In this document: piece after piece, positions 2,979 to 10,260 of the stretch
Layout of the letters: every line of letters starts with the position of its first letter
Numbering within the stretch: position 1 is the stretch's first letter
Source: a virus
Lineage: Duplodnaviria > Heunggongvirae > Uroviricota > Caudoviricetes
Length of the DNA stretch: 11,405 bases
Virus record (IMG/VR): IMGVR_UViG_648276668_000008
Location: 1-11,405 of that record
Reading direction: 5' to 3' (one strand)
Position numbers and translations under genes: made by a program
Notes under the pieces: model-generated
Told to the model about the DNA's origin: nothing
The model's database searches: none
Seen by the model: the letters and a program-made list of their open reading frames with translations, nothing else

Positions 2979-3197
2979 GTGATAGATATGAATTTAAAGA
3001 AATCTGATTTATCAACTGACCGCCTTACACGTGCTGAAGCTGCTGCCTACCTTGGCGTTAACAATCAAACGCTGGCGAACTGGGCCTGTACTGGCAAGGT
3101 AAAAATCCCTTTCCATAAGCTGGGGCGCAAAGTGCTGTATATGCGCACTGATCTCGATGCTTATCTTGCATCCACTCGCAGAACGCAGACGGTGTAA
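2979..3197 (+). CDS. Excisionase/AlpA-type helix-turn-helix DNA-binding protein
   Basis: 72 aa. LTRAEAAAYLGVNNQTLANWACTGKVKIPFHKLGRKVLYMRTDLDAYL fits the excisionase-family HTH pattern. Start is GTG 2979 or ATG 2988. Confidence 0.8.
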   Translation: MIDMNLKKSDLSTDRLTRAEAAAYLGVNNQTLANWACTGKVKIPFHKLGRKVLYMRTDLDAYLASTRRTQTV

Positions 3198-3544
3198 GGG
3201 GGAGTGATGGCACATAAAACAAAGGCGACCGTAGAGGGCCGCCAGTGGCATAACACTAAACTTGAGCATATCCAGAATACCAGGTTGTTGGCTGGTGGGC
3301 AATGCTATCAGTCTGGCTCGATTCGCTGCCATGCCTGCAATGAGCGTATTTTCCTAGAATACTCTTTAAGGTACTTCTCAAGGATAAACGCACATGGTGC
3401 GAATCTCTCCGGTTCATGTTCGTTTACCGCATTTTTGCGTTGTTTTTTCTTGGATGAGGATAATTTCTTTAATGATTTGTCAGTCATCGTAGATACCTGT
3501 AACCCTGTGCGCCACAGTTCACCGCACCACGGCGCTGGTGATGG

Positions 3545-3724
3545 TTACTCCTGCTCTTTGGCCTTGCGACGCTGGCGGTATTCAACTTCTCGCTTTAATG
3601 CTGCTGTTACAAACTGCCCTGTACTTTCACCAGGCATTTTTACCGCCTCAACATTGTTCATAACTTCATGCGGAACCCTTGCCGCAACTGTTTGTGATTT
3701 TGCGTTTACTGCTTTTGTCGCCAT
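3545..3724 (-). CDS. Small ribbon-helix-helix (CopG/Arc-like) putative repressor, 59 aa; below the ORF-track cutoff
   Basis: Minus-strand ATG at 3724-3722 with AAGGGG 8 nt upstream; stop TAA at 3547-3545. Translation MATKAVNAKSQTVAARVPHEVMNNVEAVKMPGESTGQFVTAALKREVEYRQRRKAKEQE shows a strand / helix / G-x-S-T / helix pattern typical of RHH proteins. It abuts the palindromic operators. Confidence 0.6.
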   Translation of the reverse strand: MATKAVNAKSQTVAARVPHEVMNNVEAVKMPGESTGQFVTAALKREVEYRQRRKAKEQE

Positions 3725-3774
3725 GTTGTGTACCCCTTACAAAAAACAAATGCAGTATGCAGGAAAAAAAATAA

Positions 3775-3826
3775 GTGTTCAACACTTGACGTGTTTAACA
3801 CCTGGATTTAAATTGGTGTTCAACAC
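3775..3826. promoter_or_regulatory. Divergent promoter/operator region with three 11-bp palindromes GTGTT(C/T)AACAC
   Basis: Copies at 3775-3785, 3791-3801 and 3816-3826. A sigma70-like -35 TTGACG (3786-3791), 17-bp spacer and -10 TAAATT (3809-3814) read toward the Icd-like gene and are overlapped by the palindromes. Confidence 0.6.
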
Positions 3827-3923
3827 CTTGTTGATGCAAGGTGCAGAAACGACGAAACCCGGCAGTGCGCTAACACTAACCGGGCTTCTAACCACCAACG
3901 ATAGAAAGCGTATCGAGGTAGCT

Positions 3924-4127
3924 ATGAGAAATCATACCACACACCCGCAAGGGCGGGACTCGCACGACCTGAATAAATACATCTGGCGTTTTATCGCCCT
4001 GAGCACCGCACAACCGCGCGTGATTCACATCGTGGCCACCAGCGAACAGGAAGCACGCCAGCAATCCCCGGCTGGCTGCGTGATGGTATTCGCCGCCCGT
4101 ATTCGTCAGGGGGTGTGCCATGCCTGA
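3924..4127 (+). CDS. Icd-like small protein (P4-type host cell division inhibitor family)
   Basis: 67-aa ORF, ATG 3924 with GAGGTA upstream. KYIWRFIALSTAQPRVIHIVATSEQEARQQ...VMVFAARIRQG resembles Icd-like proteins of P4-type elements (from memory). It is the in-frame C-terminal end of the 307-aa track ORF 3204..4127, which I regard as spurious. Confidence 0.65.
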   Translation: MRNHTTHPQGRDSHDLNKYIWRFIALSTAQPRVIHIVATSEQEARQQSPAGCVMVFAARIRQGVCHA

Positions 4128-4440
4128 TATGTCAAATTACCAGTACCTGATTAATCCGCATTTTAACTGTGAGCATGATATTGCTAAAAAGGTTTATTCC
4201 GCTGCGGATGGGGCTACTGACAATATATCAATGGCTGTTGCGTCAATTGGTAGCCTGATGTGGCATGCGTCAGAAAATGAGGAATATGACGAAAAGGCCA
4301 TGCGCATTGATATGGGTAATATCGGTTTGTTACTGGCAATGCTTGGACATTTTGATATTTCGTTACGGTGCACCATTGAAAATGCCACAGATGCATTAAA
4401 TGCTATAAAGAAAGCGAATACTGATTCAAATCGGGGATAA
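4120..4440 (+). CDS. Hypothetical protein
   Basis: 106-aa ORF; AGGGGG upstream; start overlaps the Icd-like stop (ATGCCTGA). Acidic, no recognisable motif. Confidence 0.55.
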   Translation: MPDMSNYQYLINPHFNCEHDIAKKVYSAADGATDNISMAVASIGSLMWHASENEEYDEKAMRIDMGNIGLLLAMLGHFDISLRCTIENATDALNAIKKANTDSNRG

Positions 4441-4446
4441 ATAATC

Positions 4447-4746
4447 ATGAGAACGTATTTATCTGGCTTGACTGCCAGCGGTTATGCACACCCCCAAATT
4501 ATCCCCGGCGCTATTTATCTGGATAAGAACGGTAACAGAGTAACGGTAAAAGAACTGATGTTTGACCGTGTGTATTTTATTCGTGATGGCTATTCATTTC
4601 ATAGTTCGCTGAACGTGGAGATCTTTATTAGCAGATTCAGGCGGGAAATCCCGCTTTCCAGAAATAACCATGTGTCACGTGTGAATGTGGATAAAAAACT
4701 ACAGGAACTGAAAAACATGATTGCCGCGTGGAGAGAGCAGAAATGA
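4447..4746 (+). CDS. Hypothetical protein
   Basis: 99-aa ORF with GGGGAT upstream; its stop overlaps the primase ATG (ATGA at 4743-4746). Confidence 0.55.
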   Translation: MRTYLSGLTASGYAHPQIIPGAIYLDKNGNRVTVKELMFDRVYFIRDGYSFHSSLNVEIFISRFRREIPLSRNNHVSRVNVDKKLQELKNMIAAWREQK

Positions 4747-6560
4747 AAAAAGCGCCAAATTTAAAACACCAGCCACGTGACAAAATGACGGAAGTCATCA
4801 TTTTTGCGGGTAGTGATGCGTGGGCACATGCGAAGCAGTGGCAGGAACAGGACGGGCGACTGGCTGGCGATAACGTGCCTCCTGTCTGGCTTGGAGAGCA
4901 ACAACTTGCCGAACTGGACAACCTGCAAATCGTACCGGACGGACGCTATCGCGTGCGTCTCTATCAGGCGGGGTTATTGCGTCCGGGGCTTGTTAATACC
5001 ATCGGGCAGAAACTGGCAGCGGCAGGTGTCAGGGATGCTGATTATTACCCTGAAGGAATGCACAGCCAGAAACGGGAGAACTGGCGCGAATATCTGGAAC
5101 GTGAACGGGCAGAGCAGGCGGAAAAGAAAAAGGTAGTTGAACTGCCTGTAAAGAAAAAAGAGCGGGTAAAAGACGATAACGCTTCATCACTGGCGCTTAA
5201 CCAGATGGGAGCAAGTCAACGCGGCGAAGTTCTCCTGGCACATTATGGCGGTGAACTGGCGATTCATGCTGACTCTGACACTGTTCACCATTACAACGGC
5301 GTTGTATGGGAGCCAGTACAGGATAAAGAATTACAGCGAGCTATGGCACAGATTTTCATTGATGCGGAGATCAGCTATTCGCAGAACGCCATTAAATCGG
5401 CGGTCGATACCATGAAGTTAAGTTTGCCTGTAATGGGGAATACAGCCCGTAACCTGATTGGATTCAGTAACGGGGTATTTGATACCAGAACAGGTAATTT
5501 TCGGGGGCATAACAAAAACGACTGGTTGTTAATTGCCAGTGAATTACCTTTCAGCCCACCAGCAGAGGGGGAAACACTGGCAACACATGCGCCGAATTTC
5601 TGGAAGTGGTTACGCCGTTCGGTGGCTGAGAATGACCGCAAGGCAGATCGCGTACTGGCGGCATTATTCATGGTGCTGGCGAACCGGTACGACTGGCAGT
5701 TATTCATTGAGGTAACAGGGCCGGGGGGAAGTGGTAAAAGCGTGATGGCGGAGATTTGCACCATGCTGGCGGGTAAGGCTAATACAGTATCAGCAAGCAT
5801 GAAGGCGCTGGAAGATGCAAGGGAACGTGCGTTAGTGGTTGGCTTTTCGCTGATTATCATGCCGGATATGACCCGCTACGCTGGTGATGGGGCAGGGATT
5901 AAGGCCATTACAGGCGGTGACAAGGTGGCAATTGACCCGAAACACAAAGCCCCCTACTCAACGCGTATTCCGGCAGTAGTGCTGGCGGTTAACAATAACG
6001 CCATGTCATTCAGTGACCGCAGCGGGGGGATCTCACGTCGTCGGGTGATATTCAATTTTTCGGAAGTTGTACCGGAGAACGAACGCGATCCAATGCTGGC
6101 GGAAAAAATAGAAGGTGAGCTGGCGGTAGTGATTCGCCATCTGCTTACACGGTTTGCTGACCAGGACGAAGCCAGACGCCTGTTATATGAGCAGCAGAAA
6201 TCTGAAGAAGCACTGGCGATAAAGCGAGAGGGGGATTCGCTGGTGGACTTCTGCGGCTATCTCATGGCGTCGGTAATGTGTGATGGCCTGTTAGTGGGTA
6301 ATGCTGAAATTGTGCCATTCAGCCCACGCAGGTATCTCTATCATGCCTATCTGGCTTATATGAGGGCACATGGGTTTGGTAAACCTGTAACACTGACGCG
6401 CTTCGGTAAAGATATGCCGGGGGCAATGGCGGAATATGGCAGGGAGTATATGAAACGGAAAACGAAGCACGGTTTGCGTTCAAACGTGACACTGACGGAG
6501 GAATCAGAAGACTGGATGCCATCATGTGTATCGGTCACTAATGACGACAGCAAAAATTAA
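4743..6560 (+). CDS. P4-alpha-like primase / replication initiator (D5/SF3-type NTPase); the satellite pri-rep gene
   Basis: 605 aa from ATG 4743 (GGAGAG upstream, ATGA overlap with previous ORF); the frame is open from GTG 4728. Walker A VTGPGGSGKSV and a possible Walker B LIIMPD. Followed directly by the iteron origin. Confidence 0.8.
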   Translation: MKKAPNLKHQPRDKMTEVIIFAGSDAWAHAKQWQEQDGRLAGDNVPPVWLGEQQLAELDNLQIVPDGRYRVRLYQAGLLRPGLVNTIGQKLAAAGVRDADYYPEGMHSQKRENWREYLERERAEQAEKKKVVELPVKKKERVKDDNASSLALNQMGASQRGEVLLAHYGGELAIHADSDTVHHYNGVVWEPVQDKELQRAMAQIFIDAEISYSQNAIKSAVDTMKLSLPVMGNTARNLIGFSNGVFDTRTGNFRGHNKNDWLLIASELPFSPPAEGETLATHAPNFWKWLRRSVAENDRKADRVLAALFMVLANRYDWQLFIEVTGPGGSGKSVMAEICTMLAGKANTVSASMKALEDARERALVVGFSLIIMPDMTRYAGDGAGIKAITGGDKVAIDPKHKAPYSTRIPAVVLAVNNNAMSFSDRSGGISRRRVIFNFSEVVPENERDPMLAEKIEGELAVVIRHLLTRFADQDEARRLLYEQQKSEEALAIKREGDSLVDFCGYLMASVMCDGLLVGNAEIVPFSPRRYLYHAYLAYMRAHGFGKPVTLTRFGKDMPGAMAEYGREYMKRKTKHGLRSNVTLTEESEDWMPSCVSVTNDDSKN

Positions 6561-6572
6561 ACTTATGGAATA

Positions 6573-6797
6573 ACTGTTCACCACTGTTCACCCTGTCATA
6601 AATATCTTTTATATCAGTATATTATAGGGTGAACAGTTATTTATGAACTGTTCACCAAACTATTCACTGTTCACCTTTTTGATTGTTTATTGAGCTTCAA
6701 GGGTGAACAGTGGTGAACAGTTGGTGAATAGTTTTTGTGAAACTGTTCACCCCTTAACATTATGAATTAAAAGAGAAAATATCAAAAGGTGAACAGG
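6573..6797. repeat. Replication-origin-like iteron array: at least 9 copies of ACTGTTCACC in both orientations around an AT-rich spacer
   Basis: Forward copies start at 6573, 6583, 6647, 6666, 6742; reverse copies (GGTGAACAGT) at 6628, 6702, 6712, 6788; degenerate copies near 6658 and 6723. AT-rich stretch 6593-6627. Sits between the primase and the next gene. Confidence 0.8.
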
Positions 6798-9132: not shown

Positions 9133-9516
9133 ATGCAGAATCATTACAATGACCTTAAGCCAATTGCCGAAATGATGTATCCGGATCCAGCAGTAGAGGA
9201 ATTAAAGGCTATTGCTGACAAAATGCGTTTAAGTGAACGCCTTGTTGATATGAATCAGGTGATGGAAATTACTACCCTTAGCCGTCGCACATTGCTAAAC
9301 CTTGAGGCTCGCGGAGAGTTCCCCGAACGCGTACAGGTTACGGAAGGGCGTAAGGCCTGGTATTTAAGCGAAGTGATCGACTGGATAAACAATATTCCTC
9401 GCGCTTCTGAATATTGCCGCGTACCTGTCCCAAAAAAGCCAGATGCGGCGCTATGCCTCAAGATTGAGCGTGTACGCCGCAATGCACGGGATGGTCGCTA
9501 TAAGTTGATTGGTTGA
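9133..9516 (+). CDS. AlpA-family transcriptional regulator (HTH) with an N-terminal extension
   Basis: 127 aa, AAGGGGGA upstream. VDMNQVMEITTLSRRTLLNLEARGEFPERVQVTEGRKAWYLSEVIDWI fits the AlpA-type HTH pattern. Confidence 0.8.
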   Translation: MQNHYNDLKPIAEMMYPDPAVEELKAIADKMRLSERLVDMNQVMEITTLSRRTLLNLEARGEFPERVQVTEGRKAWYLSEVIDWINNIPRASEYCRVPVPKKPDAALCLKIERVRRNARDGRYKLIG

Positions 9517-9614: not shown

Positions 9615-9732
9615 AGGGGGCTGGTGGTGGTTTTGTTGTTCGCTCTATCTCTATGAATAAGAAGAGAAAAATACAATCAATACACCAACCTGAAACAGTA
9701 ATTAAGTTGTGGTATCAATGAAATTGCACCTG

Positions 9733-10260
9733 ATGAACAAAAAAAACATGGCAAAAAGTTGCCGTGTAAGCGCCACTGCGTTTGATAAGTGGGGAGTGAT
9801 TCCCGTCGAGCGTAAGGGCCGTGAGGCATTCTATGATGTTGCCAGTGTAATAGATAATCGGGTTAACAATGCAATTAGCCAGATTACAAACGAAACGGGC
9901 GATATTGATGACGATGAACTTTTACGCGTCAGGATCAGATTACTGACAGCACAGGCAGAGGCGCAGGAGCTTAAAAACGAGCGCGAACGCGGCGACGTTA
10001 TTGATACAGAGTTTTGTATGTATGTTCTTTCCAAACTGGCGAGTCAGATTTCATCTATCATGGACAGCCTGCCGCTTACCATGCAAAGGCGCTTCCCACA
10101 GATGACTCCGGCTATGCTGGATGGACTTAAAAAGGAAGTGGCTAAAGCCTGTAATGCCAGTGCCGGAGTTGACGACAACCTCCCGCAGATACTGGCTGAT
10201 TACCTGATGGAAACTACCGGAAATGTGCCGGATAAGTTGCAGCCGAATAAAGACAAGTAA
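9733..10260 (+). CDS. Terminase small subunit, lambda Nu1-like
   Basis: 175 aa from ATG 9733 (frame open from GTG 9709). RLLTAQAEAQELKNERERGDVIDTEFCMYVLSKLASQISSIMDSLPLTMQRRFPQ parallels lambda Nu1 RLTRAQADAQELKNARDSAEVVETAFCTFVLSRIAGEIASILDGLPLSVQRRFPE. The N-terminal region (NKKNMAKSCRVSATAFDKW) also aligns with the Nu1 N-terminus. Confidence 0.85.
   Translation: MNKKNMAKSCRVSATAFDKWGVIPVERKGREAFYDVASVIDNRVNNAISQITNETGDIDDDELLRVRIRLLTAQAEAQELKNERERGDVIDTEFCMYVLSKLASQISSIMDSLPLTMQRRFPQMTPAMLDGLKKEVAKACNASAGVDDNLPQILADYLMETTGNVPDKLQPNKDK

Follow-up and report, generated by a model that had tools for sequence, protein, structure and literature searches.

We examined an 11,405-base-pair (bp) stretch of viral DNA (IMG/VR record IMGVR_UViG_648276668_000008; hereafter, the window) that carries an Escherichia coli phage satellite of the phage-inducible chromosomal island (PICI) type. 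We focused on its control region at positions 3775-3826, which lies between a leftward gene for a small predicted ribbon-helix-helix (RHH) protein and a rightward operon running from an Icd-like gene to a primase gene. The original prediction, made from the sequence alone, had placed three copies of GTGTT(C/T)AACAC between these two transcription units and over a sigma-70-like promoter, and both the flanking genes and the sites were recovered where it had put them (Table 1). In particular, exact matches to GTGTTYAACAC were limited to the three sites of Table 1 in the whole window, and a search on both strands that allowed up to one mismatch returned 6 matches, all of them corresponding to the same three palindromes. 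Dinucleotide-preserving shuffles contained 0.36 matches on average, and six or more matches were reached in none of the 200 shuffles. The same three copies were reported by a repeat finder, with start-to-start spacings of 16 and 25 bp.

Sites, site positions and promoter were all read from the sequence of the window. A promoter scan of positions 3300-4300 gave a single sigma-70-like promoter on the plus strand, P_R, which is directed into the Icd-like/primase operon and is composed of TTGACG (3786-3791), a 17-bp spacer and TAAATT (3809-3814), with 9 out of 12 consensus positions matched. One palindrome falls on its -35/spacer part and another at its -10/+1 part, so the overlap of the sites with the promoter was confirmed. 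The leftward half of the divergent arrangement is less clear: the putative promoter of the RHH gene, P_L (TTGAAC-17-CATACT), is weak, matching 8 out of 12 consensus positions and falling below the threshold of the scan. The -10 element of P_L is the counterpart of a conserved CAGTATAC (TATACT on the minus strand) in the related loci.

Table 1. Features of the window around the control region, in order of position.
Feature	Position	Strand	Remarks
Integrase, then 245-amino-acid hypothetical protein	left part of window		first genes of the island
HTH_17/excisionase-type regulator	2979-3197
Intrinsic-terminator-like hairpin and T run	3224-3243	-	end of the leftward RHH transcript
Small basic open reading frame, 59 amino acids	3308-3487	-	downstream of the RHH gene, probably co-transcribed with it
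YlcI/YnfO-family RHH protein, 59 amino acids	3545-3724	-	proposed repressor; predicted DNA-reading strand, residues 10-16 (SQTVAAR)
P_L, putative promoter of the RHH gene	3754-3782	-	-35 TTGAAC 3782-3777 (within site 1), 17-bp spacer, -10 CATACT 3759-3754; read from sequence; expected start near 3747
Site 1 (op1)	3775-3785		GTGTTCAACAC; last base directly before the P_R -35; holds the putative P_L -35 (TTGAAC, minus strand)
P_R, early rightward promoter	3786-3814	+	predicted +1 near 3821-3822
Site 2 (O_R1)	3791-3801		GTGTTTAACAC; first base is the last base of the -35 hexamer; occupies the P_R spacer
Site 3 (O_R2)	3816-3826		GTGTTCAACAC; begins one base past the -10; spans the predicted transcription start
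Structured leader of the early operon	3822-3923	+	same position in about 25 related loci
Leader 5' hairpin	3824-3843	+
Leader long hairpin	3857-3886	+	clear compensatory changes between loci
Leader motif TCTAACCAC	3887-3895	+	near-invariant
Leader short hairpin	3899-3915	+	beside the Shine-Dalgarno sequence GAGG
SymR-like match	3923-3851	-	sub-threshold
Icd-like protein, 67 amino acids	3924-4127	+	first gene of the controlled operon; NF033153, 71.2 bits (cut-off 25); RefSeq agrees at a 99.7% identical locus
Hypothetical protein	4120-4440	+	early/replication operon
DUF4222	4447-4746	+	early/replication operon
D5_N/DUF5906/Pox_D5 primase-helicase	4728-6560	+	early/replication operon
TGTTCACC/GGTGAACA iteron cluster	6645-6734		direct and inverted repeats between the primase gene and the next gene; probable replication origin

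Related loci were gathered by scanning one genome per species and by looking up the contigs that encode particular variants, and the loci of CFT073 and FORC_069 were added. About 35 loci, spread over about 12 enterobacterial genera, kept the layout of the control region; the genera include Escherichia, Salmonella, Klebsiella, Edwardsiella, Pectobacterium, Serratia, Xenorhabdus, Proteus, Kosakonia and Yokenella. A TTGA(C/A/G) element was found 64 nucleotides (63-65) from the RHH start codon in 23 out of 24 loci, and the place of O_R1 with respect to TTGAC was constant in essentially all related loci. O_R2 adjoined the -10 element or overlapped it by at most 3 nucleotides, and it started 22-26 bp from the start of O_R1 (34 bp in locus L033). 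In most loci a further site lay against CAGTATAC at the leftward promoter, which places a site over the -10/+1 region of both promoters. This usual leftward site was lost in the window and in Edwardsiella, where op1 is present, while the Klebsiella and Kosakonia relatives had both. The op1-type extra site was limited to the GTGTTYAACAC class (the window, L002, L004 and L044/45; degenerate in L003), in which it lies just upstream of the -35 and, read leftward, gives TTGAAC as a -35 element 17 bp from CATACT.

Across the family the site follows the pattern (G/C)TG-N5-CA(C/G), and some classes have asymmetric sites, which are found in one or the other orientation. The sites of the window are perfect palindromes, as had been predicted, but perfect palindromy is particular to their class. 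Operators and -35 element were invariant among same-class loci of E. coli, Edwardsiella and Klebsiella, while the surrounding intergenic bases diverged. The class of the window was present in 487 out of 5,426 complete E. coli genomes (about 9%), and P0044, the RHH protein of another class, was represented by thousands of blocks in the contig index. We also noted that two Xenorhabdus loci (L013 and L021) had apparent deletions through recombination between operator copies, with the -10 element or the whole promoter gone, and that TTGACGTGTTTAACAC was tandemly duplicated in L044 (Klebsiella); the repeated operators are evidently recombination-prone.

The site sequences fell into at least 11 classes, and the sites within one locus stayed alike. 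We compared the sites with residues 11-15 of the predicted DNA-reading strand of the RHH protein in 18 loci belonging to 11 site classes. Within a locus, O_R1 and O_R2 differed on average at 0.72 out of 11 positions, while sites from loci with different strand residues differed on average at 3.58 out of 11 positions. None of 100,000 permutations reached the observed pairing of sites, and the result held also with one representative per class. Since separate sites changed in parallel, whereas descent alone would only preserve each of them, this comparison speaks for a factor that reads the sites in trans and is not the same in all islands.

Strand positions 12 and 14, which face outward on an alignment with Arc, carried class-specific residues. 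The residue pair T/A (positions 12/14) was found with GTGTTCAACAC, K/E with GTGGCTGACAC, K/Q with both GTGGAGTCCAC and CTGGAATCCAG, S or A/K with GTGGGCCACAC, R/D with GTGTCCGACAC, K/D with GTGTC(A/T)GACAC, A/R with GTGTAGACCAC, and S/T with GTGTAAGACAC. In three loci with outer CTG..CAG triplets, the N-terminal arm of the protein was changed as well.

Because the RHH gene and the sites are linked, we also compared mosaic islands. The Edwardsiella hoshinae locus L002 shares only positions 3551-3992 with the window (92% DNA identity), and the coding content of this co-inherited block is the RHH gene and the first 23 Icd-like codons. The RHH proteins of the two loci were identical over 58 amino acids and the three sites were the same, with the Icd-like and primase proteins 55% and 42% identical, respectively. 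Codons 1-58 of the RHH gene differed between the two copies at 15 synonymous and 0 non-synonymous positions, which argues on comparative grounds that the gene is real and under purifying selection. Elsewhere, the identical RHH protein P0044 was found with identical operators beside either a DUF927 or an AAA_25 replicase, and with the first gene Phage_ASH present or absent. AlpA identity was 22-26% for loci that agree in RHH protein and sites, and 95% for CFT073 and L040, which belong to two different site classes. Judging from these mosaics, the RHH gene, the operators and the leader form a cassette of about 440 bp that is exchanged among islands and comes in at least 11 specificity classes.

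Two Salmonella loci (L038/L039) carried an RHH gene and operators of the GTGTCCGACAC class on a different operon (KilA-N, HTH_17 and a dATP/dGTP pyrophosphohydrolase-like protein) and had no structured leader; thus, the cassette is not confined to primase-type PICIs. In E. coli CP028381.1 (L040, 3465-3864), a second, unrelated-looking RHH-type gene (..FQFRLDPDLREKMEK..) stood in tandem with the first module. With this second module come a separate palindrome, TGTGTATATACACA, and a same-type leader (..GCCCCGCAGTG..CGGGGCGTCTAACCA..), so the design of small RHH protein, palindromes and leader seems to recur with different RHH proteins.

The protein of the window passed the NCBIfam YlcI/YnfO model (NF041551; Pfam DUF3950; family of the DLP12 and Qin cryptic prophage proteins) with 59.7 bits (cut-off 30, E = 2.1e-16, model positions 1-42), and RefSeq annotates the same protein as YlcI/YnfO. 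The satellite subfamily is set apart by its nearly invariant N-terminus, MATKAVNAKS. The predicted fold, an N-terminal strand and two helices, matches RHH repressors and antitoxins, and we accept the RHH assignment at the level of the predicted fold. Searches by sequence and profile gave much less. The window protein matched no RHH family of Pfam, and its only Pfam match, a sub-threshold one to Med10, was rejected as chance. Distant members of the YlcI/YnfO family, recovered in a full profile search, had weak Pfam matches to RHH_1 (4.5e-4), PSK_trans_fac (2.9e-4), CB_ParB_C, HicB_lk_antitox and TacA1, and the subfamily profile reached DUF3950-type proteins. The program hhalign placed RVPHEV of the window protein on RWPREV of Arc with a probability of 5%, that is, without significant sequence similarity. 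Searches of PDB by sequence and profile with the protein, the subfamily profile and a broad family profile returned nothing significant (CcdA at E = 0.45), and matches to DNA polymerase beta and TssC in the PDB sequence searches were set aside as chance. Foldseek against PDB likewise gave nothing significant, with the N-terminal domain of SeqA as the top match (E = 7). A model of the natural tandem-repeat relative P0145, used as a stand-in for the dimer, was of low confidence (predicted local distance difference test score, pLDDT, 57) and of no use for this purpose. The sites themselves, being dyad-symmetric or present in either orientation and co-varying with the strand residues, are consistent with a dimeric reader. 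Finally, blastn and tblastn searches against 50,697 phage genomes gave no match to the satellite RHH subfamily; thus, we saw no sign of helper phages carrying a cognate RHH protein.

Taking the positions of the sites together with the comparative evidence, we consider it likely that the RHH protein binds the sites, represses P_R and hence the Icd-like-to-primase operon, and limits its own synthesis; binding, repression, autoregulation and immunity are what we infer from them. One RHH dimer would sit on each 11-bp site, with its paired N-terminal strands (residues ~10-16) entering the major groove at the site centre. The near-invariant arm MATKAVNAKS probably touches the conserved outer GTG/CAC triplets, and the variable strand would read the variable core. 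Repression would be by occlusion, as the placement of the sites on the -35/spacer and the -10/+1 suggests: protein on sites 2 and 3 would block RNA polymerase at P_R, and the operon would thereby be silent in the integrated state. Protein on site 1, over the putative P_L -35, would lead to negative autoregulation, which in most relatives would be exerted through the dedicated leftward -10/+1 site. Since the cassette is portable and many classes of it exist, it probably determines which of the islands can repress one another. It would then probably be the immunity determinant of the island, with islands of different classes not cross-repressing.

How repression might be relieved is a more speculative matter. 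Our guess is that helper-induced, AlpA-driven rightward transcription could run antisense through the RHH gene into the operon; such read-through is possible because the terminator at 3243-3224 has no T run on the plus strand. It would reconcile the module with the activation of EcCICFT073 by AlpA and the induction of alpA by helper phages (PMC6092414). A helper-encoded anti-repressor or a short half-life of the RHH protein would be alternative routes. Part of the repressor-controlled switch of the original prediction is supported, namely operators of the adjacent RHH protein over the promoter of the replication operon, by the site positions in about 35 loci, the concerted change with the strand, the dissociation from neighbouring genes and the predicted fold; a second, antagonistic regulator was not evident. 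The labels 'immunity switch' and 'governing replication' belong to what we infer.

Several points weigh against RHH-mediated repression of P_R. A site of 11 bp is wide for the strand pair of one RHH dimer, P_L of the window is weak, and the usual leftward site is lost. Physical linkage of gene and sites partly confounds the association of strand with site, and the relation of residue to base is no clean code (K12/S14 occurs with two different cores, and O_R1 of L009 is degenerate). The RHH protein also has no evident sensor domain for a response to the helper phage. Finally, AlpA is necessary for the induction of EcCICFT073, and sufficient when over-expressed (PMC6092414). Because AlpA activates EcCICFT073, the RHH protein is not the sole controller and makes at most one control layer. 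On the supporting side, an ORF3 reporter of EcCICFT073 showed higher activity with alpA than without it (PMC6092414). This would fit a P_R that is largely shut if the construct carries the RHH gene.

The AlpA dependence of EcCICFT073 is also an argument for a lesser role of the RHH protein, in which it binds the sites only as a local autoregulator or accessory factor, that is, as an antitoxin-like partner of the small basic protein, an omega/ParG-like centromere binder or a fine-tuner of the Icd-like gene, while AlpA and a leader or antisense RNA do the switching. A small open reading frame often follows the RHH gene, and the conserved structured leader with its recurrent symR-like antisense signal would make another possible control layer. 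We nevertheless find such a role rather unlikely, since the best-conserved sites lie on the core of the rightward promoter and not merely on the RHH gene's own promoter. Many loci that share RHH protein and operators lack the downstream frame or carry an unrelated one. Scans of the window proteins with family models found no ParA-like partner and no toxin family, and the 59-amino-acid protein has no C-terminal extension of the kind by which antitoxins bind toxins. A toxin-antitoxin pair with the downstream frame was rejected, as that frame is not conserved.

A different protein could also read the palindromes, with the RHH gene as a bystander: the AlpA/HTH_17 regulator, the Icd-like protein, a replication initiator acting on iterons, or a host transcription factor. 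Proteins of the AlpA family are known regulators of such islands, and short repeats near replication genes are frequently iterons. On the other side, the mosaics indicate that site class is independent of AlpA type, first operon gene, replicase family and host, with at least four classes within E. coli alone, and the block shared with Edwardsiella codes for little besides the RHH protein. We thus rejected AlpA, as site class dissociates from AlpA type; replication iterons, as site class does not follow the replicase family and the iterons form a cluster of their own beyond the primase gene; and a host transcription factor, as E. coli has several of the classes. Overall, another reader appears improbable. 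Least of all, and with very little weight, do we consider the repeats a chance or structural feature without regulatory role, such as leftovers of local duplication or recombination hot spots: the deletion-like forms L013 and L021 and the tandem duplication in L044 would suit it, but the shuffles never reached the observed count, site positions with respect to -35 and -10 are constant from genus to genus, the sites are invariant where the spacers have diverged, and the inversion of two sites in some classes is unexplained by tandem duplication.

Downstream of P_R, the arrangement of the leader is reminiscent of c4-icd-ant of P1 and of CI of P4. No match to the Rfam families C4 (RF01695) and isrK was obtained at E <= 1 in the window and 9 related loci, so the leader was not recognised as one of these immunity RNAs. 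The only recurrent RNA signal was a set of sub-threshold, full-length matches to Rfam SymR (30-40 bits; gathering threshold 61), antisense to the leader and the Icd-like ribosome-binding site, in the window and at corresponding places in L008 (3807-3878), L035 (2802-2874), L014 (3802-3873) and L002 (3802-3874). An extended -10 element, TGgTATGAT, lies on the minus strand at 3939-3931, inside Icd-like codons 3-6, and is well placed for an antisense start near 3923. The SymR-like antisense RNA may be a second lock, acting in cis on the first gene.

An island of about 10.5 kb that lies between nfeF and tRNA-Ile in E. coli KC-Dl-1 is 99.7% identical to the window. After the iterons, the genes continue rightward with SSB, major capsid, head decoration, an AlpA-domain protein and a Nu1-like small terminase (TerS). 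The island has the gene content of an EcCICFT073-type PICI: an integrase gene, an alpA-type regulator, early genes, pri with a downstream origin and a few capsid and packaging genes, within about 10-15 kb and without tail or lysis genes. CFT073 itself (1377930-1388654) shows the same order as the window, including the YlcI/YnfO and Icd-like genes: int, alpA, a leftward 57-amino-acid gene and the leftward YlcI/YnfO gene (C_RS30120), followed rightward by Icd-like, DUF4222, primase, SSB, capsid (c1499) and decoration (c1500). The element is thus a Gram-negative PICI with the EcCICFT073 layout and not a relative of P4. Helper-phage dependence of induction, replication and packaging was shown experimentally for EcCICFT073 only (PMC6092414).

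In CFT073 the module lies at NC_004431.1 1380242-1381052 (L046 243-1053), with the sites GTGGGGGACAG, GTGGGCCACAC and GTGGGCCACAC and the RHH strand SQALKAR. The late-issued locus tags of its RHH (C_RS30120), 57-amino-acid (C_RS30800) and Icd-like (C_RS30125) genes suggest that these genes were added later than the original annotation. The iteron octamer of the window we take to resemble the ori/crr repeats of P4, and the sites at 3775-3826 are distinct from these origin iterons. The origin of Gram-negative PICIs lies downstream of pri (PMC6092414).

Other features of the island were also recorded. Upstream of the HTH_17/excisionase-like gene we found the repeats AATAGCTGGCTA (2841-2852 and 2862-2873) and AACTGGCTATT (2907-2917), which may be sites for the HTH_17 regulator or arm-type sites recognised by the integrase. 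A 127-amino-acid protein with a Phage_AlpA domain (9133-9516) precedes the Nu1-like small terminase (9709-10260), and by position and type it may be a counterpart of Rpp, the packaging-redirection protein of EcCICFT073 (PMC6739421). The product of the small frame downstream of the RHH gene is very basic and contains the conserved motif ERFAPCAF..LE.(F/Y)LKEY. It has homologues in CFT073 (C_RS30800), in FORC_069 (unannotated there), in L041 and in L042, with possible distant versions in L035 and L040, and it is absent or different in many loci, e.g. in L036, whose RHH protein and operators are those of L035; on this comparison, the frame is not a constant part of the module. Finally, a Dryocola island contained an above-threshold match to the Rfam int-alpA RNA (RF02996; L005 6893-6961, minus strand; 44.6 bits, gathering threshold 35.8).

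The paper that defined Gram-negative PICIs in 2018 called it 'unclear' whether they possess a global repressor (PMC6092414). Our literature searches on YlcI/YnfO, on RHH proteins in PICIs and on EcCICFT073 (the last judged by titles), with most subscription journals outside their coverage, found no description of the module. For YlcI/YnfO the literature searched described no function, the family appearing in gene lists only, for instance among the accessory genes of a capsid-forming PICI of Enterobacter (PMC13612085). The mechanism itself is a familiar one, and the novelty lies in what appears to be a hitherto unrecognised cassette of RHH repressor and operators in Gram-negative PICIs, naturally present in a series of specificities. 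The prototype EcCICFT073 has a small RHH gene (C_RS30120) with matching operators on its early promoter, which makes that gene a concrete candidate repressor, and the open question of whether these islands have a repressor becomes directly testable. The natural strand/operator pairs, at least 11 in number, are a ready data set for DNA reading by RHH proteins and could be a source of orthogonal pairs of repressor and operator in engineered PICI delivery vehicles. If the RHH protein is only a local autoregulator, the finding would be one of ordinary promoter architecture.

At its broadest, and here we are tentative, the cassette could be what has long been missing in Gram-negative PICIs, EcCICFT073 included: their master repressor and immunity determinant. 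It would be a portable unit of about 440 bp in which two or three strand residues have reset the specificity on at least 11 occasions, and it would sort islands into groups that do not cross-repress. On helper infection, either a helper anti-repressor or AlpA-driven transcription running antisense through the RHH gene would overcome it, with the SymR-like antisense RNA over the Icd-like ribosome-binding site as the second lock.

Among known systems, immI of P1 (c4 RNA, icd, ant) and CI of P4 share with the window an Icd-like first gene after a structured leader of about 75-100 nucleotides from the same promoter, and P4 immunity has no counterpart to the protein operators of the window. For some Gram-negative PICIs, an immunity based on RNA has been proposed (PMC10111431). 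Stl of the Staphylococcus aureus pathogenicity islands (SaPIs) and Rpr of Gram-positive PICIs are closer in position: in both cases the repressor gene of a satellite lies between the integrase side and the replication module, divergent from the primase/replication operon (xis/pri/rep), with operators in the shared intergenic promoter region, an arrangement that we found for the RHH gene of the window. The expected role is alike too, as the island is kept silent until the helper phage is active. Stl and Rpr are helix-turn-helix proteins several times larger than 59 amino acids, in which one part binds the inducer from the helper phage. The 59-amino-acid RHH protein differs in having no evident sensor part; a Pfam scan matched it to no helix-turn-helix family, and its fold neighbours are RHH proteins, so kinship with Stl/Rpr was not found. 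It could work like Stl, yet stand outside the Stl family.

Arc and Mnt of the immI region of P22 are small autoregulating RHH repressors, with operators over the core elements of closely spaced divergent promoters in an immunity region. The likeness to the window lies in a small RHH protein and operators on the core of divergent promoters in a mobile element. The two systems differ in that P22 uses two proteins with one operator of ~17-21 bp each, while here one RHH protein would use three separate 11-bp sites, and in that the controlled gene is an antirepressor gene in P22 and a replication operon here. CopG of pMV158 is co-transcribed with repB, whereas the RHH gene is divergent from the replication operon, and omega of pSM19035 has runs of 7-bp heptads, whereas the sites here are of 11 bp, 16-26 bp apart, and placed on the -35/spacer and the -10/+1. 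By analogy, then, the proposed mechanism resembles that of P22 Arc/Mnt and of plasmid CopG/omega, while the position of the module resembles that of SaPI Stl.

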